Position numbers and translations under genes: made by a program. The notes below the pieces were generated by a model that saw only the letters and a list, made by a program, of their open reading frames with translations, did not search any database and had not been told where the DNA came from. This document shows positions 19,606 to 47,903 of a stretch of DNA of 64,000 nucleotides, one piece after another. Position 1 is the stretch's first letter, and every line of letters begins with the position of its first letter. Source of the stretch: a virus (lineage: Duplodnaviria > Caudoviricetes); the IMG/VR virus record IMGVR_UViG_3300018405_000011; one strand, written 5' to 3'.

Positions 19606-19635
19606 AAGAATCTAGTAGGATTAAGGAGATTACCC

Positions 19636-20052
19636 ATGACCATTTATGACATTGTCCCTGGACAGAAACTGAAGTTTTCAATCTATGGACAGATTAACAG
19701 CGTGAAGAACTTCGAAGGAACAATTGCCGGGCTAGTACTCGGCAGCTATGTTCCACAAACCGAAGACCCTTCCATTAACCATGCTAACATTTACCCAACC
19801 TTACCGGACTCTCGTAAAGAAGCGTTCCAAGACCTTTATACTTCATACCAGTATGTTCAGCTAGTACGTGCGGATAACAGCATTGTATATATCGGACTAC
19901 CATGGATTAATGATGCAACCATTGAGTCTTTAGAAAACGTTATTTGTGACATCCGCCTAACTAACTTTAAAGCTTCTCGTCGTGACGAACTCGTTCTCAA
20001 GTTAGCACAGTGGAACTTTGATGTAGAAAAGATAACGGTATCGACCGAGTAA
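19636..20052 (+). CDS. Conserved phiKZ gp49-like protein
   Basis: AAGGAG RBS; HANIYPTLP...YVQL...IGLPWIN pattern; located just upstream of the DNA polymerase gene. Confidence 0.55.
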   Translation: MTIYDIVPGQKLKFSIYGQINSVKNFEGTIAGLVLGSYVPQTEDPSINHANIYPTLPDSRKEAFQDLYTSYQYVQLVRADNSIVYIGLPWINDATIESLENVICDIRLTNFKASRRDELVLKLAQWNFDVEKITVSTE

Positions 20053-24274: not shown

Positions 24275-26152
24275 ATGTTCGATCCAAATGAAAACAAAGC
24301 ACCTAAAGCAACTAAAGTTCCAGCAGGCGACAATACTCAAGCAACATCGCAATCAAGCGACTTTTTCTCTGACTATCTAGCCGGTGCTTCTGACGTAGCA
24401 TCACGTTCTTCTGAAATCGTAGTTAAGGCAGTTGAGTTCCTAAACAAACGTTCTGAAGACGCTAAGCGTCTAAACGCTGACCGTGTAGGTCTACGTTTCA
24501 CTCACATCGATGACGAAACAGCGCTAGGTCTACCTGTTATCATCGCTTACAACACTAAAGGTCCGGTTAACGGTTTCTTCACTATCATCGTTGAAGAAGG
24601 CGCATACGACGGTAAGTTAAAAGGTCGTGAAGTACATGTACTGAACGAACAGATTGTTATCGACCAATCGACTTCTGATTATTGGGATGGTATCTTAGTT
24701 ACAACTATCGCTAAGCATCTGAAGCAGCTTACTCAAAAAGACTATGCGCACAATAGCTACATGGTTGCACGCGAGTGCATGGACTTGTCTAACGAGAAGT
24801 ACCTAGGTGCACTATACGCGACATCAGAGCGTAACCTAATGTCTCTGTCTGTAGTTAATGTCCCAACAATCGAAAACTTGAACCAACACGGTCTGTCATT
24901 GGAAATAAGCCATGACGTATCACCTGGTGCAACAGTTGAAGATTTAGAAGGTAACCCTGTTTACTGTGACGTTGAATCAACCGTAAGTCTAGGTGTGCCA
25001 CGTGACCGCAACAACAAAAACCGTTCACACAATGCCCGTGAGCGTCGTGCTACTCTTGTAAACGTACGTAGTTACCTAGACTTCGTGTTCCAACCAGCAA
25101 GTCAAGTCGCTACGTTACCTGGCACTCAAGAAATGATTCGCCCAGCATACCACCCAGTATTGATTCAAGCAGACAGCTCAGGTATCGATGCTCAAACTGG
25201 TAAAGCATTTGAATCACGTGAAACTGCACTGTTCGCATTGCTAGCAATGGCAGAGCTGGCGGCTAACCGTAACTACATCAACATTCTGCGTCGTAACCAC
25301 GGCGGTAAACCAGAAATTGGTGTATTAGGCTACCGTTGGGAAGGTCGCTACGGTGTACAAGACTGGGTACCGGCCGAAGTAGAAATCGATAAAGGTATCG
25401 CTACTGGCATGAACTCAGGTCGTCAAACACTGGATGCTTACCTAAAACGTAACGTACACGACACTATTACAGTAGCAGTCGACGTACTACGCGGTGGTCG
25501 TAACGCATGGATCTATGAACCATACGTACAGTCAGTGCTAGCGAACAACCCAAATGACCGTCTAGAAGCGAACACCAATATTGTTCGTATGATTGACGCG
25601 TTCACTAAAGGTCACTTCTCTGCACTATGGCCAGAAAACAAACCTATCTTCCAAGAGTCTGTTGTTGCAGTACACTCAGCAACTTACTTAGACAAAGATG
25701 GTCACGTACATGACGTACGTGAATGTGGTACGCTACAGCTACACCAACTTTACAAAGAGCAAACTGATGCACGCATGGCTGAGTTTGAAAAATCAATGGC
25801 ACCGGGTGGTTCTAACGGTGATGTTGGTCTAGTCAACATTCACAATCGTCGTCAAGTACTAAAACAAGTACTAGGTGCAGAAATCAATGGTATGATTGAA
25901 CGTCTGTTCTACATGCCTGACTTCTTCCCTGTGTTCTTAGAAGCGTGTGGTCGCGCTGGTCTTCGTGTTAGCTCTGAAGGTCTACACGACACAACTGTAG
26001 CTGGTAACATGGGCGTGGATAACTTCCACGCTGGTCAAATGCCTACAATGACAGGTATTTACCAAACCTCTACAGGTGGTTATGCAAACGGCCAAGGTCA
26101 ATACATCGGTGGCAACTACAGCTACGGTGCATATGGTGCCTACAACGGTTAA
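24275..26152 (+). CDS. chmA: Chimallin, phage nuclear shell protein (phiKZ gp54-like)
   Basis: 625 aa; flexible N-terminus and G/Y-rich C-terminal tail; strongly biased codon usage; canonical position between DNA polymerase and the nvRNAP beta-prime gene; strong terminator at about 26182-26217. Confidence 0.85.
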   Translation: MFDPNENKAPKATKVPAGDNTQATSQSSDFFSDYLAGASDVASRSSEIVVKAVEFLNKRSEDAKRLNADRVGLRFTHIDDETALGLPVIIAYNTKGPVNGFFTIIVEEGAYDGKLKGREVHVLNEQIVIDQSTSDYWDGILVTTIAKHLKQLTQKDYAHNSYMVARECMDLSNEKYLGALYATSERNLMSLSVVNVPTIENLNQHGLSLEISHDVSPGATVEDLEGNPVYCDVESTVSLGVPRDRNNKNRSHNARERRATLVNVRSYLDFVFQPASQVATLPGTQEMIRPAYHPVLIQADSSGIDAQTGKAFESRETALFALLAMAELAANRNYINILRRNHGGKPEIGVLGYRWEGRYGVQDWVPAEVEIDKGIATGMNSGRQTLDAYLKRNVHDTITVAVDVLRGGRNAWIYEPYVQSVLANNPNDRLEANTNIVRMIDAFTKGHFSALWPENKPIFQESVVAVHSATYLDKDGHVHDVRECGTLQLHQLYKEQTDARMAEFEKSMAPGGSNGDVGLVNIHNRRQVLKQVLGAEINGMIERLFYMPDFFPVFLEACGRAGLRVSSEGLHDTTVAGNMGVDNFHAGQMPTMTGIYQTSTGGYANGQGQYIGGNYSYGAYGAYNG

Positions 26153-28365: not shown

Positions 28366-29740
28366 AAACTAAAGTACAGTTTGCTCCATTAAGGAGAAAC
28401 TCGTGGAAATTAAACTACACGGAGACACTTTCAGAAAATCTTTAGAACATCCTTCTATTGTCGTTTCTCGGACCGGCAAACTCTTTAATCTAAAAGAAAA
28501 CGCTTACATTGAAATCAATCCTCCTAAAGAAGATTGGTACTTGACGTTTACTTCTCCTGACACAGGCAAGACATCATTACTCCATCGCTTAGTTGGGGAA
28601 TGCTGGGTGTCTAACCCTAGCCCGGAAACGTTCACCCTGATTAACCATAAGAACGGTAATAAACATGACCCGCACTTTGGAAATCTAGAGTGGACCGACC
28701 ATAGTGGTAATATACGTCACGCCTATGAACATGGTCTACGTACCGAAATGCAGACACTCGAAGTTTTCGATAAAGTAACACAGAAATGGTTTAAATCTAA
28801 AGGTCTAAATAAGACCGCGGCCTTAATCGACCTATCTCCGGCGCAACTGTCTTATCACCTTAAGGCAAAGGGCTGGTTTGAAAATGCCAATTTCATCACT
28901 CAGCTTTCTAACCTGGAAAGCCGTAAGGTGGCTGACCGTACTTTGTTTCCAGTAGGTGTTTTCGCCAAAGATATCGAAACAGGGAAGGTCGTTATAGCTG
29001 AAAACATTTCGCGCCTATCTAAAACCATAGGGGTTCCGAAGTCCAATATAAGACGTTGCATAGTGAAGGGAAAAGAATACCCCTCCAATGGCTACTTGTT
29101 TAGTTTGGACGGTGAGTTCCCAGAGACATGGAAAGATAACCATCGGACTAAAAAAGCCGTGGTCTACTTACATGAAGACGGGCGTAGAGTAATTGCCGTT
29201 TCGGATAGAGAAGCACAGAAACTGACAGGTATTAATGCTAAGCGTATAGTTAGAATGAAGAAAGAAGGTTCATCCTTTAAAGGTTGGAAAGTGCAAACTG
29301 GATAAGTCCGCCTCTATGGTGACATACAGGTGAGAATACGTGAATTGCTGGTAAAGTCTAAAGCCTAACACCAAAACGGATAGCGAAAGCTAAAACGGTA
29401 ACGGTGACGAAAGTCAGAAAAGACGTTAGGATGACCTATGGTGAGAGCCTAAGGGTTTTGACAATGGACAGCTCAGCAGCCAAGCGCCTACGGATTGTTG
29501 TGATAACAAGCTATGGTGAAGGTTCAACGACTATTACTGGGTACGGCACCCGATGTAGGAGAGCAAGCGCCTCCGAAGTGCGTATATCTGGAGTTGACTG
29601 AAGAAGTCTTATTCTCCAGAACTGATATAGTCTCGGCGTATCGCAAGATACCTGCTAGCCTGTGATGGTTAGTCGTCCGGTGAAACCCCGGAGCAGCATT
29701 AAGTTGCGGGTAAGGGATAGCATCCTTACTGAAGATAACG
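28366..29740 (+). mobile_element. Group I intron (1375 nt) in the nvRNAP beta-prime gene
   Basis: P GAATTGCTGG (29342), Q TCAGCAGC (29473), R GTTCAACGACTA (29522), S GATATAGTCT (29624); terminal G at 29740; removal joins NAD to FDGDQ. Confidence 0.92.
28403..29305 (+). CDS. Intron-encoded HNH homing endonuclease
   Basis: LHRLVGECW...INHKNGNKHDPHFGNLEW HNH motif; C-terminal NUMOD1-like repeats; AAGGAG RBS before GTG. Confidence 0.88.
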   Translation: MEIKLHGDTFRKSLEHPSIVVSRTGKLFNLKENAYIEINPPKEDWYLTFTSPDTGKTSLLHRLVGECWVSNPSPETFTLINHKNGNKHDPHFGNLEWTDHSGNIRHAYEHGLRTEMQTLEVFDKVTQKWFKSKGLNKTAALIDLSPAQLSYHLKAKGWFENANFITQLSNLESRKVADRTLFPVGVFAKDIETGKVVIAENISRLSKTIGVPKSNIRRCIVKGKEYPSNGYLFSLDGEFPETWKDNHRTKKAVVYLHEDGRRVIAVSDREAQKLTGINAKRIVRMKKEGSSFKGWKVQTG

Positions 29741-29998: not shown

Positions 29999-30538
29999 GT
30001 GTATAGGATGATAGTAACTAAACTCAAGTTTTATTACGGAGCGTGTACAGGTTTCTTCCATCGGAACATGCGCAAGATCATTCCTAAATGGAATCAAGCT
30101 GCAATCGATAAGGCATCAGAATGGCCTGGTATTACCCTTATTCCGCTTGTGGCTGAACGAATAGGTATTGTATCTGGATGCCCATTACCGGGATACGTAA
30201 TGATGCTGCAACCTATTCGGGACTATGACCTTTTGCTCCAAGAACAATGGAAGGTCAATAACATCTGTCTAGACGAGTGGGTCTATTCGTCCGCCTGGCT
30301 AACAATGGTACAGTCTAAAACTATCACTGAAGATTCCTACTTTAGATATCTAAAGTACTTCCATGACCTAGACGTACAGTGGAAAGCGGGTACGTTAAAA
30401 GGAATGCCTACTTTAAGCCAAAATGTCTATAACGATTATGGAGCCGACGAGATGGCTTTAGTCATTGATATAAAGAATGCTTTATTCGAGATATTCAATA
30501 GTAAAGCCCTCACCGATAAACCCTACGTGATGTTATAA
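29999..30538 (+). CDS. Hypothetical protein
   Basis: 179-aa ORF; exact start uncertain. Confidence 0.6.
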   Translation: MYRMIVTKLKFYYGACTGFFHRNMRKIIPKWNQAAIDKASEWPGITLIPLVAERIGIVSGCPLPGYVMMLQPIRDYDLLLQEQWKVNNICLDEWVYSSAWLTMVQSKTITEDSYFRYLKYFHDLDVQWKAGTLKGMPTLSQNVYNDYGADEMALVIDIKNALFEIFNSKALTDKPYVML

Positions 30539-30711
30539 GGCTATCTTACCTTAACACCCACATTATGTTTAAGCTAATTTGCAGGAGTACAGTAAATGCA
30601 ACCGTGTCTATGGGAAAGAATTAAAATTTGGTTTTGTGAGAATTTCGAACATAAGTTTGATAAGTCTAAGGCATGGGTCTTTAATGGTCATCGGCATAAT
30701 ACATGTAAGCG

Positions 30712-30918
30712 ATGTCGCCGAGTTATTTCTACCACGCTGGAGAACGATTAATGTGCTATTCCCTGCTAGAGTGTTATTTCGACGGAACATTAGTCATTAT
30801 AATAGTAGCACTTATAGCCATCGCGGCCCTAGCCATGGCTCTAAGCCCATATCGCCGTAAAGTATATGTCACTTTGGCACCCTTCAGGAGAATACCAACC
30901 ATTGATAAAAGGGAATAA
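30712..30918 (+). CDS. Small membrane protein
   Basis: TM segment LVIIIVALIAIAALAMAL; real start probably internal. Confidence 0.5.
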   Translation: MSPSYFYHAGERLMCYSLLECYFDGTLVIIIVALIAIAALAMALSPYRRKVYVTLAPFRRIPTIDKRE

Positions 30919-30922
30919 GTAA

Positions 30923-31174
30923 ATGAAGCATGACCCCGCAGAAGATGAGCTGTCAACGCATGATTTTAAAGGAGAATTTATTAGAAATGGAATCCGTTAT
31001 GTCACTTACTGGAATTATGGCCAAAATATACCACATGGTGTTATTCCTGACACCATAAAGGATCTTCGTCGACGTGGCGCACCATTGACCGGAACGATTA
31101 CTGTCGAAGGACTGAGTGACTACTTAAATAAATATGTCAGAGGTTCAAATGAAGTGGTGGAAAGGAACAATTAG
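30923..31174 (+). CDS. Hypothetical protein
   Basis: 83 aa, in an operon-like run. Confidence 0.55.
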   Translation: MKHDPAEDELSTHDFKGEFIRNGIRYVTYWNYGQNIPHGVIPDTIKDLRRRGAPLTGTITVEGLSDYLNKYVRGSNEVVERNN

Positions 31175-31604
31175 AAGACTTCAGGAAGACATGGTGTTAG
31201 TCGTAGGAACGAACCCAGCCGGGAGACATGGCAAGGGTGCTGCTAAGTTTGCGATGCAGTTCGGTGCTAAATACGGTCAAGGGAGAGGGATGATGGGGCA
31301 GACTTATGGTCTTGTTACTAAGAACCTCAATAAAGACTTTATAGAGCAACACGGTAACCGAGAGATACATTACGACAAGACTGGCCCACGTTCTTTATCT
31401 AAGGAACAGGTTGAAGAGAATATCTTTGATATGTACACCATCGCGATGACCCTTCCTGCATTGCGCTTCATCGTTATCTATCAGGCTACAGACGACAATC
31501 TAAACGGATACACTGCTAAAGAAATGTGGGAGATGTTTACTCACGTAGACCCACCCGATAACATCTATTTCCATGTTAGCTTTAAAAAGTTCTTAACAGA
31601 ATAA
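31149..31604 (+). CDS. A1S_2505-like (macro-related) phage protein
   Basis: VVGTNPAGRHGKGAAKFA..FGAKYGQGRGMMGQTYGLVT motif. Confidence 0.65.
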   Translation: MKWWKGTIRRLQEDMVLVVGTNPAGRHGKGAAKFAMQFGAKYGQGRGMMGQTYGLVTKNLNKDFIEQHGNREIHYDKTGPRSLSKEQVEENIFDMYTIAMTLPALRFIVIYQATDDNLNGYTAKEMWEMFTHVDPPDNIYFHVSFKKFLTE

Positions 31605-31616
31605 AACCTATATTAC
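31603..31616 (+). promoter_or_regulatory. Phage promoter motif
   Basis: AAAACCTATATTAC, perfect consensus. Confidence 0.7.
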
Positions 31617-31698
31617 TTATGTGACCCAGCCTTCTTAGCAATAAGAAGTATCTTTTAACCAATACCTCTTATGCTATGAAACCCAATTGGAGAACACA

Positions 31699-32328
31699 AT
31701 GCTTAATACCATTTATGCCGATAGCGACGTCGGCATTGCCAGTTTGTTTGGTCGGCCCAGCCAAGCCTTACAAGCTAGAATCAATCAAGGGGTACAGGCT
31801 TTCTTAGAAAGAACCAGCCCCTATTGTTCAGACTTAGCGGCATCGGTAGCCCACCGTTTCCATGAATATACACATGGTGACTTTGCCCGCCGTGTAAATA
31901 GCGTCCGTGGGTACATTAATCAAAGCTTTAAATCTGATGGAATCCGTTATCTATCTAATGTAGAAGAGTTACAGAATGCCCCTGCATCAATGCGTCATTA
32001 TGTAATGGCACATCCTGGCATGCGTGAACTCTATCAGCAAAACTGTATCGAAGGCTATGGCGATGCTTATCGTGATGCTTCGCCAACAGGTATTGGTCGC
32101 ACTCACTACGACTATCGCGTCATTACTAATGGTGTTGTACAAGCAGAAGAAATGGATGACGGAGAAACAAGAATGATAGCTCGTCGTTATTACGAAGCGG
32201 TAGTGCCTGAGTACACGCCTACGTTAAGCGATAAGGCCGCAGTACAGATTACCTACGATGTACTGACTCGTCATTTACGTGACTCATTGCTTGACCCTAG
32301 TTCTGAAAACAATGCCTTAATCGGCTAA
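31699..32328 (+). CDS. phiKZ gp59-like conserved protein (Imp3 candidate)
   Basis: LQNAPASMRHYVMAHPGMRELY...EGYGDAY...HYDYRVI pattern plus synteny. Confidence 0.55.
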   Translation: MLNTIYADSDVGIASLFGRPSQALQARINQGVQAFLERTSPYCSDLAASVAHRFHEYTHGDFARRVNSVRGYINQSFKSDGIRYLSNVEELQNAPASMRHYVMAHPGMRELYQQNCIEGYGDAYRDASPTGIGRTHYDYRVITNGVVQAEEMDDGETRMIARRYYEAVVPEYTPTLSDKAAVQITYDVLTRHLRDSLLDPSSENNALIG

Positions 32329-32357
32329 TAAAAGAAAGGGCGTTTGTCCTTTCTTTT

Positions 32358-32795
32358 TTGTCAACTATAGGAACCACCATCATGCCCGTACCTGCAATAG
32401 GCACTCTATCGTCAGACGGTTACGTTACTGACCCTAAAAAACAACTTTCGTATATGTTTGCCCACATATTCGAAACCCGTCATAATGACACCATCCTTTT
32501 CACAGGACAACTTACTTCGATTCAGTTACTGACCGCTAAGTACGCTAAAGACAGTGCGGTGTTTCGTACCGAACTTACGGCAGCATTAACAAAATACTTT
32601 TCTCGTGTCTTTGATAGTGCTAAAGTTATCGTTACCACTGAAGATATCGATGAGTCTAGCTACATGGCTTCTATAGACGTCAAGGTGACGCGTAATGGCG
32701 AACTTTATAGCTTAGGTGCTGAGCTGTCTATAGACCCCTTAAAATCCATTACACGCCTGATTAAGGAGATTAACCAGTCAATAACCTCCCCCTAA
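32358..32795 (+). CDS. Conserved phiKZ gp62-like protein; stop codon supplied by the IscB element left end
   Basis: 145 aa; the last codons (SITSP*) lie inside the element beginning at 32777. Confidence 0.6.
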   Translation: MSTIGTTIMPVPAIGTLSSDGYVTDPKKQLSYMFAHIFETRHNDTILFTGQLTSIQLLTAKYAKDSAVFRTELTAALTKYFSRVFDSAKVIVTTEDIDESSYMASIDVKVTRNGELYSLGAELSIDPLKSITRLIKEINQSITSP

Positions 32796-33023
32796 AGGGG
32801 TAGGCTTGTAAAAGCCTAATTGACCAGCCTTAGTTCTTAACAGAACTACGTTATCTTAGTTATCATACCCTGGGGTGGCCGGTCCAGCCCCAGGCTCTAT
32901 GCAGGCTCTGTAAACAGTTCTAGAGGTAAGAACCGTCAACCTGGTGAGCCGATTACGGTAAGCTTTGATAACATTGGCGAGGACCACTTAACTGCTTAAA
33001 TGCACGTAAACAGGAACGATATT
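32777..33023 (+). ncRNA. omegaRNA (HEARO-type) scaffold 1
   Basis: 247 nt directly upstream of the iscB ATG; conserved GTCA..., GACCAGCC, CTACGTT and ACATTGGCGAGG elements; multiple stems covary with copy 2. Confidence 0.88.
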
Positions 33024-34481
33024 ATGTCTAATTCCGTATTCGTCTTAAATGACGATAAAACGCCCTTAATGCCGTGTAAGCCGGCTAGGGCGAGATTATT
33101 ATTAAAACAAGGTAGGGCGGCTGTGTTTAGAACCCATCCCTTTACTATCATTCTAAAAGAACAGATAGAGAACCCTGTACTGGAAACGATAAGGGTAAAG
33201 GTAGACCCCGGTAGTAAAACCACCGGGATAGCCTTAACAGTTCACTATAAAAGAGGAGTAAAGTGCATCTGGGGAGCCAACCTAGAACACCGAGGTCATG
33301 CTATAAAAGATGCATTACTATCTAGAGCACAGTGTCGTAGAGGGAGGCGTGGCCGAAAGTTACGCCACCGTAAACCTAGATTCTTAAATCGGTTTAAACC
33401 TGAGGGATGGCTTGCACCAAGCATTATGTCTAGAGTAGATAATACACTAACTTGGGTAAATCGCTTGATGCGGTACTGTCCTGTGGGACAGGCCTCTGTA
33501 GAACTTGTTAAGTTTGATATGCAGAAGATGGAAAATCCTGAGGTTACAGGTAAAGGATACCAACAAGGTACTTTACACAACTATGAAGTTAAAGAATACT
33601 TACTGTATCGCTATAACCATACTTGTCAGTATTGCAAAGGCGTCAGTAAAGACCATATTCTAGAGATAGAGCACATTGTACCTAAATCTAAAGGAGGCAC
33701 GAATAGTATTGGTAATCTAACTTTAGCCTGTTCGAGCTGTAACCGACATAAGAATAACCATACTTTGAAAGACTGGTTAGAAATAAACCGTGGTCTAAAA
33801 ACACCTCTGGCTAAAGCCAGGGTACGTAACATCCCTAGTGTGATATCAAGACGTAAACCTACGCTTAGAGACGCTGCCGCTGTCAATGCGACGAGACATA
33901 GGCTAGTAGAAGAGCTAGGGTTTTTAGGACTACCGACGGAGTCGGAGGGAGGGCATGTTACGAAGTATAACCGCCGCCGGCAAGGCTATCCGAAGGACCA
34001 CTGGATAGATGCTGCGCTAGTAGGTGATACGGGCAGTAACGTGCACATACCGAAATCTACGCATCCGTTACTTATTAAAAAGACTAAAGTTAATAACCGT
34101 CAAATGACTAGGCCGGATAAGTATGGTTTTCCTAGAACTAAACCTAAAGGCCCGTCTAAAGCCTTCGGGTTTAAAACAGGTGATGTGGCTAAGCATGGTA
34201 GGCTTATTGGCCGCGTAGCGATAAGAACATGCGGTTACTTTAACTTTTTAGGTAAAGGCTGCAGTTACCGGCACTTAAAACGTATCCAGTCAGTAGATGG
34301 TTACCAGTACACCGACGGTAAGTTAACAAGTCTAATAACAGAAACCGACTACTTGCCATGGTTTACTTATGTACATTCCGTTACTAAAATAGATGGTAGT
34401 GCTAAAAAGATAACTGGCAAGCTTAATAAGGAGGGAAAGAGATTTTTATGTACACCAAAAAATACATCAGGCACGTCCTGA
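33024..34481 (+). CDS. iscB: IscB RNA-guided endonuclease 1 (485 aa)
   Basis: PLMP motif, RuvC-I VDPGSKTTG, Arg-rich bridge helix RRGRRGRKLRHR, RuvC-II VELVKFD, HNH EHIVPKSKGGTNSIGNL...CN, RuvC-III HWIDA. Confidence 0.95.
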   Translation: MSNSVFVLNDDKTPLMPCKPARARLLLKQGRAAVFRTHPFTIILKEQIENPVLETIRVKVDPGSKTTGIALTVHYKRGVKCIWGANLEHRGHAIKDALLSRAQCRRGRRGRKLRHRKPRFLNRFKPEGWLAPSIMSRVDNTLTWVNRLMRYCPVGQASVELVKFDMQKMENPEVTGKGYQQGTLHNYEVKEYLLYRYNHTCQYCKGVSKDHILEIEHIVPKSKGGTNSIGNLTLACSSCNRHKNNHTLKDWLEINRGLKTPLAKARVRNIPSVISRRKPTLRDAAAVNATRHRLVEELGFLGLPTESEGGHVTKYNRRRQGYPKDHWIDAALVGDTGSNVHIPKSTHPLLIKKTKVNNRQMTRPDKYGFPRTKPKGPSKAFGFKTGDVAKHGRLIGRVAIRTCGYFNFLGKGCSYRHLKRIQSVDGYQYTDGKLTSLITETDYLPWFTYVHSVTKIDGSAKKITGKLNKEGKRFLCTPKNTSGTS

Positions 34482-34526
34482 TTCCTCAGGGGACTAAAGT
34501 CCCCGGTATTCTCAGGAGAAAATAAA

Positions 34527-35003
34527 ATGAGTGGTTTTATAGTCCCAGAAAACGTTTTTCCTTCTATTAAGGAAAGTTTGTTCCGTGACCGTTATTTGCC
34601 TGCCTTCATTAATAACGATAAAGAGCTTTGCTTAGAGTGGGTAGAGCGCATCTCTATCTCTCCCTTTGCAAAAGTACGTGTAGTCGATGATTCGGATATG
34701 GATAAGATTCTATTTGAAGTCCCGCCACTAGTACGTGGTCCAGAGACTCAGATAGGCGGAAACTTCAATGCCGTAATGCAAACCGCTAGCCGTATTGCAG
34801 AAAACTACAACAGTAAAGTGACTGAGCGCTATATCCGTGATACGTTAAATGGGCGCTTTGTCTGTGAAACCGAATCCGACGCTGACATGGAAGCGTGGAT
34901 TGACATTGCAATTCGTTATGGATATAGTCGTCCAGATACACCACAATCTACTGCCTCAGGAAACAATAATGGATTGGTTAACGAAGAAGAAGACTGGGAT
35001 TAA
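34527..35003 (+). CDS. Conserved phiKZ gp64-like protein
   Basis: 158 aa, acidic C-terminus; RBS AGGAG lies in the element's right end. Confidence 0.6.
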   Translation: MSGFIVPENVFPSIKESLFRDRYLPAFINNDKELCLEWVERISISPFAKVRVVDDSDMDKILFEVPPLVRGPETQIGGNFNAVMQTASRIAENYNSKVTERYIRDTLNGRFVCETESDADMEAWIDIAIRYGYSRPDTPQSTASGNNNGLVNEEEDWD

Positions 35004-36141
35004 CATCCTTTACTTTTCCGATGTACATATGCTTCATCCCCGTGTACGCAGTCGAGATATTGCTGACCGATTACAAAAGCTAATCCTTAATGTTATCAAA
35101 CACCATGTGTTAGACTATATCATCATTGCTGGGGACTTTTATGATGAAAGTGGCTATTTACCCGATGAAGATGTATTTGTAGTAGAAGAGTTTATACGTG
35201 TGCTGATTCATCTATGTGCACATAATCATATCAAGCTTCGGATACTAGAAGGTACCCCGTCCCACGATAGAAAGCAATCTCGCCACTTCGTTAAGGTAAA
35301 TAATTTCCTTAGTGGAAAAGAAAAGGCCGACTTAAAATACATCGAGACATTGGACATTGTTAAGGAAGAAGATGGTTCGACATGGCTTTATGTCCCAGAT
35401 GAATGGCATCATGACCCAGATGTTGTCTGGAAGCAGGTACGGGATAGGCTGAATCAGGAAGGTTTAACTCAGGTAGACTTTTCCGTAACACACGGGATGT
35501 ATAAGCACCATGTACCACATGGACTGGATTTAAAAGCCCATGACCCTGACCGGTATCTGGATATCACCCGTTACTATGTAGACAATGGGCATATCCATAC
35601 AAAGTCTGTCTACAAAGACAGGTTCATTACCAATGGGTCACCTGACCGTTTGGCTATGGGGGAAGAGGAAAGTAAAGGGATATGGATGGCTCATGTAAGT
35701 AGTCACTCACGTATGGAAGACAAATTGTTTTTCTTTGAAAATAAAGAAGCCACGTATATGGTAACTTTAGACATTAAAGAACATACCTTTGAGAGAAGTA
35801 AAGAAGTCATCGAGTCCCATTGCCATCCTACAGAAAGACGCTTTATTCGTCTGGAAATCTCAGAAGAGCTTTATAGTCAAGGACTGATGAGTTATTTCCA
35901 AGACTTATACCCTAATATAGTCTGGACAAAAAAGGTCACTCGCAATGACAATATGCAAGTCTCTTTTTTAGAGGCATTAAATGCTAAAGTGCACAATAGA
36001 CCTATTAATGCCAACACAATCGAAGACCTTTTCTTAGAAGAAGCACGTCTTCGTAATGTAGACGAGAATGAGGTTATAGATGCCTTAGCTTTTTTGAAAT
36101 CCCAACCCTTTTATGTCAGTAACCTCCCCCTAAAGGGGTAG
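34969..36141 (+). CDS. sbcD: SbcD/Mre11-like metallophosphoesterase nuclease (phiKZ gp65-like)
   Basis: FSDVH, AGDFYD, EGTPSHD, THG and GHIH motifs; probable start ATG 34969; stop codon lies inside IscB element 2. Confidence 0.85.
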   Translation: MDWLTKKKTGINILYFSDVHMLHPRVRSRDIADRLQKLILNVIKHHVLDYIIIAGDFYDESGYLPDEDVFVVEEFIRVLIHLCAHNHIKLRILEGTPSHDRKQSRHFVKVNNFLSGKEKADLKYIETLDIVKEEDGSTWLYVPDEWHHDPDVVWKQVRDRLNQEGLTQVDFSVTHGMYKHHVPHGLDLKAHDPDRYLDITRYYVDNGHIHTKSVYKDRFITNGSPDRLAMGEEESKGIWMAHVSSHSRMEDKLFFFENKEATYMVTLDIKEHTFERSKEVIESHCHPTERRFIRLEISEELYSQGLMSYFQDLYPNIVWTKKVTRNDNMQVSFLEALNAKVHNRPINANTIEDLFLEEARLRNVDENEVIDALAFLKSQPFYVSNLPLKG

Positions 36142-36361
36142 GCATGTAAGTGCCTAACTGACCAGCCTTAGTCCCGTTAGGGACTACGTTATCTTAGTTA
36201 TCATACCCCGGTGTGGCCGGTCCAGCACCGGGCGCTATGCAGGCTCTGTAAACATACCTAGAGGTAGGGTAAGTCAACCTGGAGAGCCGATTACGGTAAG
36301 CTTTGATAACATTGACGAGGACCACGTAACTGCCCTACGGGCACGTAAAGGGAACGATATT
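36115..36361 (+). ncRNA. omegaRNA (HEARO-type) scaffold 2
   Basis: 247 nt upstream of the iscB2 ATG; colinear with copy 1, with compensatory changes. Confidence 0.88.
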
Positions 36362-37834
36362 ATGTCTAATTCCGTATTCGTCTTAAATGACGATAAAACG
36401 CCATTAATGCCGTGTAAACCGGCACGGGCGAGATTATTATTAAAACAAGGTAGGGCAGCAGTTTTCAGAAAGCAGCCCTTTACTATCATTATGAAAGAAC
36501 AGATAGAAAACCCTGTTCTTGAGAACATTGAGGTAAAGATAGACCCCGGTAGTAAAACCACCGGGATAGCGCTAGTAATGAATACTAAACGTGGAGCTAG
36601 ATGTATCTGGGGTGCCAACCTTAAGCACCGAGGTCAGCAGATACGTGATGCCTTATTGTCCCGCGCTCAAACGCGACGGGGGCGACGCAGTCGTAAACTG
36701 CGCTACCGTAAGCCTCGATTTTTAAACCGAGTTAAATCTAAAGGGTGGTTGGCGCCCAGTATTTACACTCGAGTAGATAATACCCTCACTTGGGTTAACC
36801 GTCTTATGCGCTATTCGCCAGTGACGTCGGCAGTGGTTGAACTCGTTAAGTTTGATATGCAAAAGATGGAAAACCCGGAGATTGCAGGTAAGGCGTATCA
36901 GCGAGGAAGTCTCTTTAACTATGAAGTTAAAGAGTATTTACTGTATCGATATAACCACACCTGTCAGTATTGTTCTGGTGCATCTAAAGACCCCATTTTG
37001 GAGATTGAACATATTGTTCCTAGAGCATCAGGTGGTAGCAATCGACTGAGTAACCTGACACTCTCCTGTGCGACATGTAACCGAGAGAAAGGGAAACTGT
37101 CTTTGGCTGACTGGAAGGATAAATGTACCCACCGAAAAAACCCTATTGACATGAAGCGATTAAAAGGTATTGTTCGAGTGGGACAGAACATTAAGCCCGC
37201 ACTGAAAGATGCGGCTGCCGTGAACGCTACTCGATATCGTCTAGTAGCTGAGCTGGACTATCTGGGACTACATACGGAAACCTCAGGAGGACACATTACC
37301 AAATATAATCGTAAGCAACAGGGTTATCCGAAGGACCATTGGATAGATGCTGCTTTAGTCGGAGAAAGGGGTTCTCACGTTCATATCCCTCCGGAGTTAC
37401 ATCCTTTAATCATTAAAAAGGTAAAAGTTAATAACCGCCAGATGACAAAGCCTGACAAATATGGCTTCCCTCGAACGAAAGCTAAAGGTCCTTCCCGAGC
37501 TTTCGGTTTTAAGACAGGAGATATCGCGGCTTCCCCGTTTGGCGTGGGGAGGGTGGTCATCCGGACCTCGGGTACTTTTAACGTATTAGGAAGAGATGTT
37601 AGCTGGAAGCGTTTAGTCCATCTCTCCTTTACTGACGGTTACGAATATGTGGACCAACGCATCGTCAAGATGATTGTTGATAAGCATACTGTAATTAAAG
37701 AGGTGTTTGAGAGAGTCATATCAAAAACATTAATTGACGCCGATTCCCTTCTCATAGAAGGTACATTGAATCGTAAAGTAGTTCATGGTATCCGTAGGGA
37801 CAGTAAAACTAGAGACCATACTAAACTATATTAA
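36362..37834 (+). CDS. iscB: IscB RNA-guided endonuclease 2 (490 aa)
   Basis: PLMP, IDPGSKTTG, RRGRRSRKLRYR, VELVKFD, EHIVPRASGGSNRLSNL...CN and HWIDA all intact. Confidence 0.95.
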   Translation: MSNSVFVLNDDKTPLMPCKPARARLLLKQGRAAVFRKQPFTIIMKEQIENPVLENIEVKIDPGSKTTGIALVMNTKRGARCIWGANLKHRGQQIRDALLSRAQTRRGRRSRKLRYRKPRFLNRVKSKGWLAPSIYTRVDNTLTWVNRLMRYSPVTSAVVELVKFDMQKMENPEIAGKAYQRGSLFNYEVKEYLLYRYNHTCQYCSGASKDPILEIEHIVPRASGGSNRLSNLTLSCATCNREKGKLSLADWKDKCTHRKNPIDMKRLKGIVRVGQNIKPALKDAAAVNATRYRLVAELDYLGLHTETSGGHITKYNRKQQGYPKDHWIDAALVGERGSHVHIPPELHPLIIKKVKVNNRQMTKPDKYGFPRTKAKGPSRAFGFKTGDIAASPFGVGRVVIRTSGTFNVLGRDVSWKRLVHLSFTDGYEYVDQRIVKMIVDKHTVIKEVFERVISKTLIDADSLLIEGTLNRKVVHGIRRDSKTRDHTKLY

Positions 37835-37850
37835 TCATAAGGAGTAAACG

Positions 37851-38627
37851 ATGACTCCACGTACCGTAGGAGAAAAGTTAGCGTTTTCAGTAGGGACAGC
37901 TATCCCTTTAGAGGAACACGTTGTTTCAGATGGGTATAAAGCCGACGCTATTCTGTTAAACGTGAAAACGTTATTTAGAAACTTCTGGGGGGCGTGGCCA
38001 AATACCGACCGTCCTCCAGTACAGCAAATGTTTGAGCTTTTTGTAGAAGAAGTTAGAGACATTATGGCACTGTGTCAAACGATGGGAATAACACCTGTCC
38101 TATATCACTTGACTTATGCCTCACTGAGCAATCGTTATCCGAATGCTACGTTAGTAGTTCCTAAGACCGATAACCAGAAGGCCTATGCCAGCGCCGAAGC
38201 AGCTATGATGAAGGTAGCCATTAGTCAGTTCCCAGAAATGGTAAAGAGCGATTTAACATTACCGTCTTTTAACGGAAACGTTTATCTGTTAAGTTCATAC
38301 CCAGTAGACTTACTTAATGCGCATCGCTATGTATCGTTAAAGTTACTCGAGAGCCATACGGGGAATGTGAAAGGACGCGCTGAGTGGTTTAGTAAACTCA
38401 GTAACGCTCCTGAACTACAACACCTTCCATTTAACCATTTCATGTTACAGGTATTTGGTGACCGGGCTACTCAGTTTGTAGGCCAATCCCAGAAGATAAA
38501 GAAAGCCGTCATTAAACTAGCACTTTCTCGTAACTGGAATCAGTCTACTACCCTTACCCGTATACGTGAAAATCTCACATCGATTGAAGACAGTGACTTG
38601 CGCAAACAGTGCCTGTCATTTGTCTAA
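37851..38627 (+). CDS. Conserved phiKZ gp66-like protein
   Basis: 258 aa; AAGGAG RBS; synteny after sbcD. Confidence 0.55.
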   Translation: MTPRTVGEKLAFSVGTAIPLEEHVVSDGYKADAILLNVKTLFRNFWGAWPNTDRPPVQQMFELFVEEVRDIMALCQTMGITPVLYHLTYASLSNRYPNATLVVPKTDNQKAYASAEAAMMKVAISQFPEMVKSDLTLPSFNGNVYLLSSYPVDLLNAHRYVSLKLLESHTGNVKGRAEWFSKLSNAPELQHLPFNHFMLQVFGDRATQFVGQSQKIKKAVIKLALSRNWNQSTTLTRIRENLTSIEDSDLRKQCLSFV

Positions 38628-38647
38628 CCCGACAATAAGGATACCCT

Positions 38648-39334
38648 ATGACAGGCTATGTAAAAACCCCACTGAGTCATCGTAAGCTGGCACTTCGAGG
38701 TGTTCCCTACTCCGAAGACAGTTATAAGGCACCGCAGTTTGTACCCGACATGTTCGCTGGTAACCCGCAGTTAGTTGCCTGGGCAGAGTTTCCAGAAGAA
38801 AAAGACAAAGTCGATAGCCGCACTGGAAAGTCCATGTGGAAGGTACCCATTAAGGCCTCTACAAGCTGGCCTAGACTGCGCAGCTTATTGATGGACATAA
38901 AGTCATTGATTGGTAACAGTGACCCCGTAGTGAGACGCGTAGAGACCCTTACACTACCACCGGACGAAAGCGGTGAAGGAGTAGGCACTGGACGAGTGCA
39001 TCAGGCCTACATCTATTATGGCCGAGCCAAATCTGGGCACTTGTTCATTGCTCTAGAAAACGCAGACCGACCACGATGTACTTTCTTGTTTGAAGAAGAC
39101 AGTTGGCATAATTACCAAAGTAAAGAAGACAGTCAGCAGGCTGCCTCTGTACGTTCGGATAATGTGGCGCTGGGGTATATTGATACGCTTATCGATACAT
39201 ACCAGTGGGTCTTTACTAACAAGTATGACCCTGACTTCGTTCCAAAACGAAAACCACGCATTCCGCCAAACCCTGTGTACGAAGAGCAACCTAAAACGGA
39301 AACGACTCCTGTTGTAACAGAAGGCTGGGAATAA
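38648..39334 (+). CDS. phiKZ gp67-like protein (ChmC/Imp6 nucleic-acid-binding candidate)
   Basis: 228 aa directly upstream of the gp68-like subunit; YYGRAKSGHLFIAL...RPRCTFLF pattern; assignment mainly by synteny. Confidence 0.5.
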   Translation: MTGYVKTPLSHRKLALRGVPYSEDSYKAPQFVPDMFAGNPQLVAWAEFPEEKDKVDSRTGKSMWKVPIKASTSWPRLRSLLMDIKSLIGNSDPVVRRVETLTLPPDESGEGVGTGRVHQAYIYYGRAKSGHLFIALENADRPRCTFLFEEDSWHNYQSKEDSQQAASVRSDNVALGYIDTLIDTYQWVFTNKYDPDFVPKRKPRIPPNPVYEEQPKTETTPVVTEGWE

Positions 39335-39439
39335 AGCGATCATTAGCTACGTCCTTTTAAAGGACGTAGCTATCCTTCTTTTGCCTTATTTAACGAGGCG
39401 CGTGAATTCTCTGGAAGGTGGCTATTTTCAGCCATTTTT

Positions 39440-39453
39440 AAAACCTATATTAC
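39440..39453 (+). promoter_or_regulatory. Phage promoter motif
   Basis: AAAACCTATATTAC, perfect consensus. Confidence 0.7.
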
Positions 39454-39490
39454 TCTTATGTATACCCACTATTAACATTAGGAGAACACC

Positions 39491-40930
39491 ATGTCTTTAG
39501 CCATATCTATCATACCCGCCACTAAGCGGCTATCGACTTCCTATAAAGGAAAGGAGATTACGTGGCAGTATAGCGTATGGGGACGGTTAAACACTGAGCC
39601 AACCGAGCGTATTTTCGGTGCGACCAACGACTATCTGGCAACTCTACCCGAAGCCGTTCAAGATGACCTATGGGCGTGTTACGAAGAAGCCAATGATTTA
39701 TTACTGTCTATTGGTAACTTAAAAACCTTAGAGTCTGACTTGATTACTATTGTTAACCGTATGTCACAACATTTTGATTTTGACCATCTGCTTAACTGGG
39801 CAGTTACCAAAGGTAATATTCTACCAGACACTAATATTGAAGAGCGCAACAACACGACTAACCCTGACTCAATGCACTATGTTCGCCAAGACGCTCATGA
39901 AATGGCGGTGTTCTGCGTACTGGTAAAACTCATTACGCCAATCTGGGGACCATACATCAACCATGTTAAAGACGAAGTAGGCAATCTACAAAAAGAACGT
40001 ATTGCTGCGCGTATCTTTGCAAAGTCTGCGTTTTCTGAAATGCGCCCATATGTACGCATTCAAGATTACCTAACCATACTTGCAGAAGTCAAAACCAAAA
40101 ACATCAATACAGCAATGATGTATGGCCTGCCAAAAACAGACCTAGACAGTTTCCTGATGGGGTTAACACTGACTCGTCGTTTTACGGTTATCCCGCTGCG
40201 TGCAAAGGGACAGCCGTCAATTGTAGCCTATGTCTTTAAGTTCCTAGAAGACAAAATCACGCAATTAGGAAACGGACCATATCGTGACAAGTTCCCATTA
40301 GGACAAGGGACATCACAGGAATCCGACAGCTTTGCTGACCAGTACCGTATCTCTCAAGATGTATCGGACATGATACCGATTGAGATAGAGTACTATTTGG
40401 AAGATGTTCCTCGTATCTGTGAAACCATGGGACTCGATGAAACAGGCCTAGAAGACGTCGTAGCACTGCGCCGTGCTCTAAAGGAAAACAAACGTTTTAA
40501 AATTATTGACGTTATCCATGAAGTGATTCCGGCGTTAGTGTTTAGACACGTTGTCTCACCTGCCCTGCATCGTCATCTATGCCGTGACGCACGATTAACC
40601 TTAATCGCCGTTACTGCGGTATACTGCCATGTACGTGGCTTAACAGATATCACTCGACTGCTTACGGCAGTTAAACAACCATTAGACCTTACTGAAATGG
40701 AGATGGGGACTCAAAATGGTCAACAGTTACGTCGGATGAGTAAAGAACTTGAAGATGCACTTAATGACCGCTACCCACATCGACAACCCAGTGATTTAAG
40801 AAACGGCACTAACCCAGGCCGTAACATAATCGAAGAAATCGTCAAATTCATTAATGCCCATGACTGGCTAGGTTTAGACGATGTCTCTGAAATTCGTAAC
40901 TCTTTAGCTACACTCTTTATTGAAAAGTAA
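39491..40930 (+). CDS. Non-virion RNAP sigma-like promoter-specificity subunit (phiKZ gp68-like)
   Basis: 479 aa; position in the gp66-gp74 block; helical character. Confidence 0.6.
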   Translation: MSLAISIIPATKRLSTSYKGKEITWQYSVWGRLNTEPTERIFGATNDYLATLPEAVQDDLWACYEEANDLLLSIGNLKTLESDLITIVNRMSQHFDFDHLLNWAVTKGNILPDTNIEERNNTTNPDSMHYVRQDAHEMAVFCVLVKLITPIWGPYINHVKDEVGNLQKERIAARIFAKSAFSEMRPYVRIQDYLTILAEVKTKNINTAMMYGLPKTDLDSFLMGLTLTRRFTVIPLRAKGQPSIVAYVFKFLEDKITQLGNGPYRDKFPLGQGTSQESDSFADQYRISQDVSDMIPIEIEYYLEDVPRICETMGLDETGLEDVVALRRALKENKRFKIIDVIHEVIPALVFRHVVSPALHRHLCRDARLTLIAVTAVYCHVRGLTDITRLLTAVKQPLDLTEMEMGTQNGQQLRRMSKELEDALNDRYPHRQPSDLRNGTNPGRNIIEEIVKFINAHDWLGLDDVSEIRNSLATLFIEK

Positions 40931-46015: not shown

Positions 46016-47903
46016 TTCTCTATAAGGACTGATTTTAATTAGTAACAAATGTACCAATAGTATGTATTTAAATTTTAATAGTGCGAGAATACAACTATGT
46101 TTTGGTACATTCCAGGAACAAACGATTGGGCGATTGATGAAGAACATATTCTTCGTAGTCCAGAAGGAAAACTCATCCGGCCGAGTGTTAACCAAAGGGT
46201 TAGATTAACCCTGTACGGTAAACCAACGGCTACTTCATTGAAGCGTCTATTCCTTTTAGCGCATCATGACATGTTTTTACCAGATAGAAGTCTAGAGGGG
46301 CTCCAAAACGTTAAGTTTGTCCCTCAAGAGAAATCTGGCTTTACTGAAAGTAGTGGGTTCATGCCTATCTTCAAGGAACCCATTCACATTAATAAGGATT
46401 TTCGCGTATGTCCACTATGCCCAAGTCTGGCCGTAAATAAGGAGGGTACTAAAATTTATTGCTGGAGGACTGATAAGTATCTAAATGTTTATAGTCTCGC
46501 CGGTTACCGATACCTTACTCACTACGGCCGAAATTACAGGGTTCATAGATTAGTAGCATCGGCATGGGTAGAAAATCCAAATCCTCGGACTAAACCGGTT
46601 GTTAATCACATTGACCACAATAGAGATAACCCGCATTATCTTAACTTAGAATGGTGTACCCAGCAAGAAAATGCCGAGGCTATGGTGGAATATGGAAACA
46701 GCGCTACAGCCATCGAGTGTAAAGTTAGAGACTTTGTAACGGGCGTGGTAACTATTTATCCTAGTGTCAATGCCGTCGCTAAGGCGTTAGGTTTAAAACC
46801 ACCAATACATTTAAGTACTTTAATGTCTACCAACCCTTATCGTCTTTATATGGACCGCTACGAAATAAAGCCACTGATGGATCAGACCCCATGGAAAAAG
46901 ATATCTCCAGGAGAATCCAGGAAGTCCCAGTACACATTTGCAGTCTACGAGTCACCTGGTAATGCCTTGATTTATCATGATCGTATGCAGGTACAGAAAA
47001 ACTATAAGATATGGAACGTTCCTAACATCGAGCGCCTAATCGATAAGTTTTCTGAACTCCATCCTGACAAACGTATCTATTATTGCAAAAACTATATACA
47101 TGAGACTATACAGTCGATGCGTATAGGCACATGGGAAATTAAGGAGTGGGCTTCAATACGAGAAGCCTCTAGAAAACTTAATGTCAGTTTTTCGGCCATA
47201 CATGGAGTTATCCGTGATAACGCTTCTTCTAGAGAAGTTAAAGGTTACCTCTTTAGAACAACATCCTCGTTGCCGTGGGAACGCAATGTAGATGCATTTA
47301 AAAGTAAAAAAATGAGTTTAAAAGCAGTGCACGAAAAGGACGGAAGTACAATCAACTTTGTATCTCTGCGTGCCGCCGCCACCCACTTTAACTGTGATAG
47401 AAGCACCGTTAAAAGATGGATACGTAAAAAAATTGTTTTGTTCGGTTACTTTTTAAACAAAAGTTAATAGCATCCCTTAGCCAGTAATGGCTTTGAACAA
47501 ACTCCTCTAATTGCGGGAAGTTCTTGGTGAAACTTACTACCAACTTAATGCGGAAACGTAATTAAGGGCGCAGCTAATCACTGCGGTATGGTAAAAAGGT
47601 AAGTGGAAAGAAAATCGACGCAGCGAAGTTCCTAAGTCTATTAACAGATATGGAATGAGTTCAACGACTATCGAAAGGATAGCCATAGTGGTGACATTAT
47701 GGTGAATAACTGAGTAGAGTACAGCCACAGGCTTATGGTGGCCCTGGAGAACAGGATAGCGCACATGCGTAATGGAAACGGGGAGCCCCTACCTCATCTT
47801 TATAAAGATGTCGAGGGTGATGATATAGTCTGCCCCTTATGGCGACATAAGGCGGGTGTCTGAGCACACCGGGTCAACAATTGCACGTTGATTGGACAAA
47901 GGG
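46016..47903 (+). mobile_element. Group I intron (1888 nt) in the nvRNAP beta gene
   Basis: P AATTGCGGGAA (47509), Q AATCGACGCAGC (47613), R GTTCAACGACTA (47659), S GATATAGTCT (47822). Exon end GGATGT pairs with GCATCC (47470-47475) with a terminal U.G. Terminal G at 47903. Splicing gives HGCKGVV. Confidence 0.9.
46097..47467 (+). CDS. Intron-encoded HNH homing endonuclease
   Basis: RVHRLVASAW...VNHIDHNRDNPHYLNLEWCT; NUMOD1-like repeats WASIREASRKL and FVSLRAAATHF. Confidence 0.9.
   Translation: MFWYIPGTNDWAIDEEHILRSPEGKLIRPSVNQRVRLTLYGKPTATSLKRLFLLAHHDMFLPDRSLEGLQNVKFVPQEKSGFTESSGFMPIFKEPIHINKDFRVCPLCPSLAVNKEGTKIYCWRTDKYLNVYSLAGYRYLTHYGRNYRVHRLVASAWVENPNPRTKPVVNHIDHNRDNPHYLNLEWCTQQENAEAMVEYGNSATAIECKVRDFVTGVVTIYPSVNAVAKALGLKPPIHLSTLMSTNPYRLYMDRYEIKPLMDQTPWKKISPGESRKSQYTFAVYESPGNALIYHDRMQVQKNYKIWNVPNIERLIDKFSELHPDKRIYYCKNYIHETIQSMRIGTWEIKEWASIREASRKLNVSFSAIHGVIRDNASSREVKGYLFRTTSSLPWERNVDAFKSKKMSLKAVHEKDGSTINFVSLRAAATHFNCDRSTVKRWIRKKIVLFGYFLNKS

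Follow-up and report, generated by a model that had tools for sequence, protein, structure and literature searches.

Does a phage genome that carries two related copies of an RNA-guided nuclease keep both in working order, and what do the differences between the copies say about the RNA that accompanies each nuclease? The question is raised by a 64,000-nucleotide (nt) stretch of a Caudoviricetes virus, IMG/VR record IMGVR_UViG_3300018405_000011 (the whole stretch is "the window" below), in which two omegaRNA scaffolds each lie directly 5' of an iscB gene. A probability of about 0.8 is assigned to the answer that these are two paralogous, functional IscB-omegaRNA modules of OMEGA type (short for obligate mobile element-guided activity), duplicated in the phage lineage and since diverged, with the nuclease and the scaffold fold kept by selection. 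The parts of the two modules are as follows.

32777-33023, + strand: omegaRNA 1 scaffold (HEARO core 32777-32992, weak 3-base-pair terminal hairpin 32993-33004, ribosome binding site, RBS)
33024-34481, + strand: iscB1, 485 amino acids, with RRXRR/PLMP-RuvC and HNH domains
36115-36361, + strand: omegaRNA 2 scaffold (HEARO core 36115-36330, 5-base-pair terminal hairpin, RBS)
36362-37834, + strand: iscB2, 490 amino acids, intact, with RRXRR and HNH domains

Paired differences between the two omegaRNA scaffolds

Alignment to the Rfam covariance model for HEARO (RF02033), which the original prediction had proposed as a check, places both copies above the gathering score of 83 bits (core 1 at 139.1 bits and core 2 at 117.2 bits), and each match covers model positions 1-211 of 211. 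Homology between the copies begins precisely at G32777 and G36115, and the sequences 5' of these positions are unrelated. Each core is followed by a 31-nt spacer and then by the ATG of a co-oriented iscB gene, close to the family mode of ~30 nt. An in-frame ATG at 33000 was considered as the iscB1 start and rejected; it lies inside the RNA, and comparison with copy 2 and with the N-terminus usual in the family speaks against it. Both scaffolds do run 247 nt to the ATG, as originally claimed, but the equality is partly coincidence, given that the last 31 nt contain two 1-nt insertions or deletions that offset each other.

The original prediction further held that the scaffolds differ mostly by compensatory changes, on the strength of six stem comparisons. 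For a position-by-position count on the ungapped alignment of the 216-nt cores, the pairs were taken from the Rfam consensus structure, which is independent of both sequences, with three local extensions by the analyst; helix numbers are those of Rfam's helices counted from the 5' end. There are 29 differences between the cores. Nine base pairs account for 18 of them, each pair changed on both sides and Watson-Crick in both copies, at scaffold positions 5/44, 30/37, 59/68, 61/66, 95/116, 98/113, 141/157, 142/156 and 143/155. Pair 5/44, for example, is A-U in copy 1 and G-C in copy 2, 30/37 goes from U-A to A-U, 59/68, 61/66 and 95/116 each go from U-A to C-G, and 98/113 goes from G-C to U-A. 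Eight of the nine are Rfam's own pairs, 61/66 being one of the analyst's extensions. Two further differences are one-sided changes to G-U, at positions 36 and 153, and eight are unpaired (four in one loop, the rest at 120, 158, 169 and 212). The last breaks a pair: at pseudoknot position 52-201, C-G in copy 1 has become C-A in copy 2 (window positions 36166/36315). This uncompensated change had been overlooked in the earlier reading. Stems are thus far from being broken as often as preserved, with 20 of the 21 changed paired positions still pairing.

When the 29 changes were placed at random, none of 200,000 trials gave nine or more doubly changed pairs (maximum 7). Sliding the partners by 1-3 columns left only 0-2 such pairs, and reduced the paired cells from 90% in register to 26-44%. 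The nine compensated pairs are distributed over helices P1, P3, P4, P6 and P7, with unchanged pairs lying between changed ones within one helix. Unpaired and core nucleotides are nearly constant between the copies, and the compensating pairs were fixed in peripheral helices. The first five of the six stem comparisons are accordingly borne out as true compensation. The sixth, TGC..GCA against TGCCC..GGGCA, falls away, since it is a difference in stem length (3 against 5 base pairs) with no compensation in it.

That last stem is the terminal hairpin of the spacer. Among family spacers, measured from the end of the Rfam model to the RBS, 33 of 34 fold at -3 kcal/mol or better, most of them into a stem of 4-5 base pairs that begins right where the model ends and bears a tetraloop-type cap. 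OmegaRNA 2 conforms to the family in its terminal hairpin; in omegaRNA 1 that hairpin has 3 base pairs left. Each of the two RNAs therefore bears one blemish, the shortened hairpin in the first and the pseudoknot mismatch in the second. An 11-nt insertion at scaffold positions 168-178 makes a small extra hairpin.

The same fold is seen when the pair is set in its family. A covariance model built from the window pair retrieved 76 further omegaRNAs 5' of IscB genes from viral and metagenome loci. In the resulting 78-sequence alignment 91.5% of cells are paired, as compared with 65% after shuffling; the alignment was fitted to the model and hence leans toward the structure, but the margin is still very large. 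Changes on both sides occur in 62 of 65 pairs, and the covariation score of 0.55 contrasts with 0.15 in shuffles and 0.04-0.07 for slid partners. Family covariation agrees with the published HEARO fold, so that the originally claimed covariation "proof of structure" holds as a confirmation of that fold, while it re-derives what is published for HEARO/omegaRNA and adds nothing new.

The three-pair core of the pseudoknot also covaries strongly across the family. Pair 52-201 is CG in 33 of the 76 sequences, AU in 25, UA in 11 and GC in 5, with two non-pairs, of which omegaRNA 2 is one, and a single pseudoknot mismatch of this kind is apparently tolerated. Counted over the family, the Rfam pseudoknot is supported over alternative partners for the 3' strand (197-203): pairing with the 5' end (1-6) is unsupported, since 2-201 pairs in 45 of 76, as is pairing with GUCAA at 159-163, where 162-199 pairs in 6 of 68. 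A further candidate, CCUC at 9-12 with GAGG at 203-206, is mostly invariant and thus uninformative. Exact scans of IMG/VR and of the Joint Genome Institute (JGI) metagenomes with two invariant omegaRNA segments gave no match.

The nucleases, the origin of the pair and the state of each copy

Both proteins have the domain plan of IscB, an N-terminal PLMP/RRXRR region and a split RuvC into which HNH is inserted. The RRXRR domain (PF14239) matches at 3.9e-71 (239 bits) in IscB1 and 9.2e-72 (241 bits) in IscB2, HNH (PF01844) at 8e-13 and 6e-12, respectively, and IscB chains in the Protein Data Bank (PDB) match the two window proteins. In an alignment of 30 IscB sequences that includes both copies, RuvC residues D61, E160, H326 and D329, HNH residues H217 and N240, and the zinc cysteines C201, C204, C236 and C239 are all invariant. 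At well-conserved columns each IscB deviates at 10 of 143, within the family range of 0-15, and most of the deviations are common to both.

IscB1 and IscB2 are 68% identical. The many synonymous differences that had been noted between their genes amount to ~244, against ~278 non-synonymous ones, and by the Nei-Gojobori method the proportions of synonymous and non-synonymous sites that differ (pS and pN) are 0.73 and 0.25. The ratio of non-synonymous to synonymous substitution rates (dN/dS) is ~0.10 overall, a value obtained with dS saturated and with the raw pN/pS of 0.34 as its upper bound; over the first 100 codons, where dS is unsaturated, the ratio comes to 0.17. Neither is near 1, the figure that the original prediction had named as speaking against selection. 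In a relative-rate test with IscB2 as the outgroup, IscB1 has 12 unique changes and its closest relative, P0002, has 9, with no acceleration. With the stems kept, dN/dS low and the catalytic residues invariant, the claim that both copies are under selection is supported: iscB has evolved under strong purifying selection, and neither copy looks to be decaying.

The exception to this conservation is the C-terminal part, where pN rises to 0.53 from residue 401. The ~90 C-terminal residues of IscB2 are strongly diverged from those of IscB1, and beyond DGY(Q/E)Y the tails show essentially no relation to each other. To judge from solved IscBs, this diverged part may be the end that reads the target-adjacent motif (TAM). 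The extreme tail of IscB1 also departs from P0002. An A-run of iscB1 (34456-34497 region) is one base longer than that of P0002, giving a late frameshift in which the last ~8-13 residues differ and the stop falls 4 codons before that of P0002. The alternative frame of iscB1 reads QKIHQARPDSSGD followed by a stop, like the P0002 tail, and terminates within the loop of the element's far-end hairpin. Either the frameshift is cosmetic or the homopolymer was misread in sequencing; the tail concerned is not conserved.

Among ~7,900 homologues, only the window pair and P0002 (87% to IscB1) are closer to one another than 54%, and all others stand at 54% at most. With the three forming a group of their own, the window copies are lineage-specific paralogues. 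Their synonymous divergence is uneven, a feature not mentioned in the earlier reading: the copies resemble one another to an unusual degree in the 5' third of iscB, with pS of 0.44 in codons 1-100 (zero in codons 1-12) against 0.79 in codons 101-400. The copies are identical over 52 nt (33013-33064 and 36351-36402), a run that reaches from the RBS through the start codon and 13 codons. Across 116 family pairs of similar protein identity the corresponding pS values are 0.81 and 0.84, and none of the 116 is as low in codons 1-100 as the window pair. General synonymous constraint, be it on the RNA or on translation, or an extension of the omegaRNA into the 5' end of iscB, was considered and set aside, for the family pairs show no such dip. 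The pattern suggests, as the better reading, a short recombination or gene-conversion tract between the two copies in the 5' end of iscB.

Recombination could also bear on the scaffolds. If whole helices had been swapped in from other omegaRNA lineages, the paired differences would not be nine independent tests; the mosaic just described, with its exceptionally low 5' pS and its identical run across the start codon, would fit such an origin, as would the clustering of the changes in five helices. It is nonetheless unlikely that the differences arose in this way. Apart from P0002, the collections searched yielded no relative of either IscB above 54% identity and no matching omegaRNA DNA. Changed and unchanged pairs are, moreover, interspersed inside one helix. 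Swapped helices would in any case still show that selection retains pairing.

Certain observations do weigh against two functional modules. OmegaRNA 2 carries C-A in a pseudoknot core of three base pairs, at a pair kept in 74 of 76 relatives; the terminal hairpin of omegaRNA 1 is unusually weak; iscB1 is frameshifted late relative to its closest relative; and dN/dS, imprecise with dS saturated, is a pairwise value that cannot exclude a recent inactivation of one copy. One copy might then be a recently inactivated relic, its signal of selection recording past constraint only. Module 2 would be the candidate for its broken pseudoknot pair and for the absence of a far-end hairpin, and module 1 for a terminal hairpin of 3 base pairs where nearly all family spacers fold stably, together with its shifted tail. 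Such a relic is judged decidedly unlikely, given that both open reading frames (ORFs) are full length with all invariant residues kept, that profile scores are equal and no relative-rate excess is seen, and that nearly every changed paired position keeps its pairing. The blemishes themselves come down to a tolerable A-C pair, a peripheral hairpin and a non-conserved tail. Two maintained modules remain the preferred reading.

Junctions, predicted guides and a possible homing route

The setting of the modules is that of a nucleus-forming jumbo phage, with densely packed genes on the + strand. An ORF for the nuclear shell protein (chimallin) matches a PHROG profile, and this match places the phage among the nucleus-forming jumbo phages; any phage-encoded IscB would consequently have to act inside the phage nucleus. 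Other window genes include a DNA polymerase and split RNA polymerase beta-type subunits. An SbcD-like nuclease gene lies between the two IscB modules, inside a conserved block of replication and transcription genes. A megablast search of window positions 30000-40000 against GenBank phages gave no match. For the SbcD-like gene, the closest GenBank relative is the Vibrio jumbo phage vB_VmeM-Yong MS32 (53% identity), which has the same gene order as the window and lacks both IscB elements. The features on which the argument now depends are these.

24275-26152: nuclear shell protein (chimallin) ORF, PHROG profile phrog_4795, 1.4e-35
32761-32776, + strand: predicted guide 1, 16 nt adjoining scaffold 1 on its 5' side, placed by the IscB geometry of Meers 2023
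34482-34526, + strand: far end of element 1, with a subterminal hairpin and the substitute RBS GGAG; boundary before ATGAGT at 34527
36099-36114, + strand: predicted guide 2, 16 nt adjoining scaffold 2 on its 5' side, in the last codons of the SbcD-like gene

At the first junction Yong MS32 reads GAGGAGATTAACCGATGA, a stop/start ATGA overlap, and the window flanks joined over element 1 give AAGGAGATTAACCA+ATGAGT, which mirrors it. From this correspondence it follows that element 1 was inserted into the ATGA overlap. ATAAR was also considered as a far-side motif of element 1, but in light of the Yong MS32 junction ATGA is the more parsimonious choice. So delimited, element 1 is 1,750 nt long (32777-34526, with a one-base ambiguity) and holds only the omegaRNA and iscB. 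Scaffold 1 gives the upstream gene a new stop six codons on, and the far end gives the downstream gene its GGAG RBS. The far-end hairpin, GGGGAC-TAAA-GTCCCC at 34489-34504 (folded as DNA), is 22 nt from the boundary; together with one at 32785-32804 it gives element 1 hairpins near both ends, alike in a CTAAAG loop and with the stem polarity swapped. In element 2 a DNA fold finds the scaffold-side hairpin only, with none at the far end, and the right boundary is ambiguous within 37832-37850, in TAATCATAAGGAGTAAACG. No TnpA (Y1 transposase) was found in or beside either element, the neighbouring ORFs all matching phage families, and non-autonomous IscB elements commonly lack TnpA (Meers et al. 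2023, doi 10.1101/2023.03.14.532601).

The stretch that would serve as guide 1 takes in the final codons of the phage gene upstream (32358-32795) along with the downstream gene's native RBS. Guide 2 is unique within the window. For guide 1 the window has one other near match within 3 mismatches, a 15/16 match (TTAAGGAGATTACCCA) at 19621-19636, at the RBS of a gene starting at 19636. That site is followed by TGACCA, not ATGAGT, and is probably spared by its adjacent motif.

The anatomy of the elements suggests how they might act. Each scaffold transcript would also include the final 16 nt of the phage gene upstream, and these would form the guide. The complex would then cut a phage genome where the gene end meets the native junction (ATGAG for element 1) rather than the scaffold start GTCA(A/G)T; the element-bearing genome would be spared, the guide match in element 1 being followed there by GTCAAT. 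Repair of the break by recombination from an element-bearing genome would result in RNA-guided homing or retention, with the exclusion of co-infecting relatives as a possible further effect. RNA-guided homing or retention between co-infecting phage genomes is, on this anatomy, most likely what the modules do. As there is no transposase, and element 2 lacks a far-end hairpin, at least element 2 would spread only by homing.

A fuller version of this proposal is tentative, and somewhat less than an even chance is given to it. It would make the modules RNA-guided homing endonucleases, active in a nucleus-forming jumbo phage, lodged at stop/start junctions of a conserved core-gene block, guided by the end of the upstream gene, and rebuilding the stop and RBS that they interrupt. 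On co-infection they would cut element-free relatives inside the phage nucleus and be copied in, and the diverged C-termini would read different TAMs, such that the RNAs and proteins may be evolving toward orthogonality. Against activity of the modules counts that the Yong MS32 sequence has 3 mismatches to the 16 nt of guide 1; the guide length and the TAM are themselves predicted.

That the modules have instead been domesticated for a non-homing phage function (for instance guide-directed cleavage of DNA from the host or a rival, or control of transcription), with a flank-derived guide that is incidental, would suit the absent transposase, the missing transposon end of element 2, the position of both modules beside the SbcD-like gene in its conserved block and the strongly diverged C-terminal parts (pN 0.53), but is very improbable because the guides are plain flanks, as for ordinary IscB elements, because the sole near match in the 64-kb window (15/16 to guide 1) has a different adjacent motif, and because intact catalytic residues speak against a binding-only role.

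The window also holds the protein-guided kind of selfish nuclease, in HNH-endonuclease-like ORFs next to introns, so that both kinds, protein-guided and RNA-guided (IscB), occur in it. The intron features are as follows.

28403-29305 and 46097-47467: HNH-endonuclease-like ORFs (phrog_59), adjoining introns in the RNA polymerase gene region
29264-29653: group I intron, Rfam RF00028, 52 bits
47386-47852: group I intron, Rfam RF00028, 74.8 bits

Comparison with known systems

The structure of omegaRNA, its covariation and the mechanism of IscB are already published, and in this respect the finding is correct but ordinary. Compared with HEARO/omegaRNA as known from RF02033 and from cryo-electron microscopy of OgeuIscB-omegaRNA (7xht, 7utn, 8csz), the window RNAs share the helices, the pseudoknot, the site directly 5' of iscB, the strand and a spacer of ~30 nt that contains a terminal hairpin, a feature of 33 of 34 family members. 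Nothing architectural sets them apart; their own peculiarities are the C-A pseudoknot pair in the second, the short hairpin in the first and the 11-nt insertion. What the paralogous pair provides is internal confirmation that both omegaRNAs share the published fold and that both nucleases are maintained, with no new structure, and also a natural experiment on which omegaRNA helices tolerate sequence change.

A second parallel is ISGst5 of Geobacillus stearothermophilus, although its IscB and those of the window are only distantly related. The guide of GstIscB is the flank beside the scaffold, its target is the empty site, and its TAM, TTCAT on the left-end strand, reads ATGAA in the iscB sense (Meers et al. 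2023, doi 10.1101/2023.03.14.532601). Like ISGst5, the window elements are non-autonomous omegaRNA-iscB units, co-oriented with the upstream gene and with a predicted flank-derived guide; the far-side motif ATGAG of element 1 resembles ATGAA, and element 1 shares the subterminal hairpin at its far end. Unlike ISGst5, they reside in a phage genome and have no TnpA, element 2 lacks the far-end hairpin, and the likely target would be an element-free allele in a co-infecting phage, not the sister chromosome after excision.

A second IMG/VR record, IMGVR_UViG_3300011202_000010 (341 kb; L002, L007), has two IscB-omegaRNA copies at different sites, with 93% protein identity, sharp element ends and similar C-rich hairpins at both ends. 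It was set aside as a parallel case, having no chimallin match and being classed as a provirus. RNA-guided homing among phages has been described as theoretically possible in a 2026 OMEGA review (PMC13565253), and a search of one paper library found no study of IscB-based RNA-guided homing in jumbo phages. What may be new is the context, a jumbo phage that encodes chimallin and carries intact, transposase-less IscB modules at its gene junctions.

It is with the phage homing endonucleases, such as the free-standing T4 Seg/Mob and the intron endonucleases of nucleus-forming jumbo phages, that this context invites comparison. As in those systems, a selfish nuclease gene is wedged between conserved genes, and the predicted substrate of the window IscB is the allele without it. 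The difference would lie in recognition, which for IscB is RNA-guided and self-updating (the guide being whatever flank the element has acquired) rather than protein-based, and in self-protection, which would come from loss of the adjacent motif rather than from sequence polymorphism. If the proposal is true, the modules at ATGA-type junctions would exemplify RNA-guided homing between phages in nature, and it is this context, more than the fold, that gives the pair its interest.

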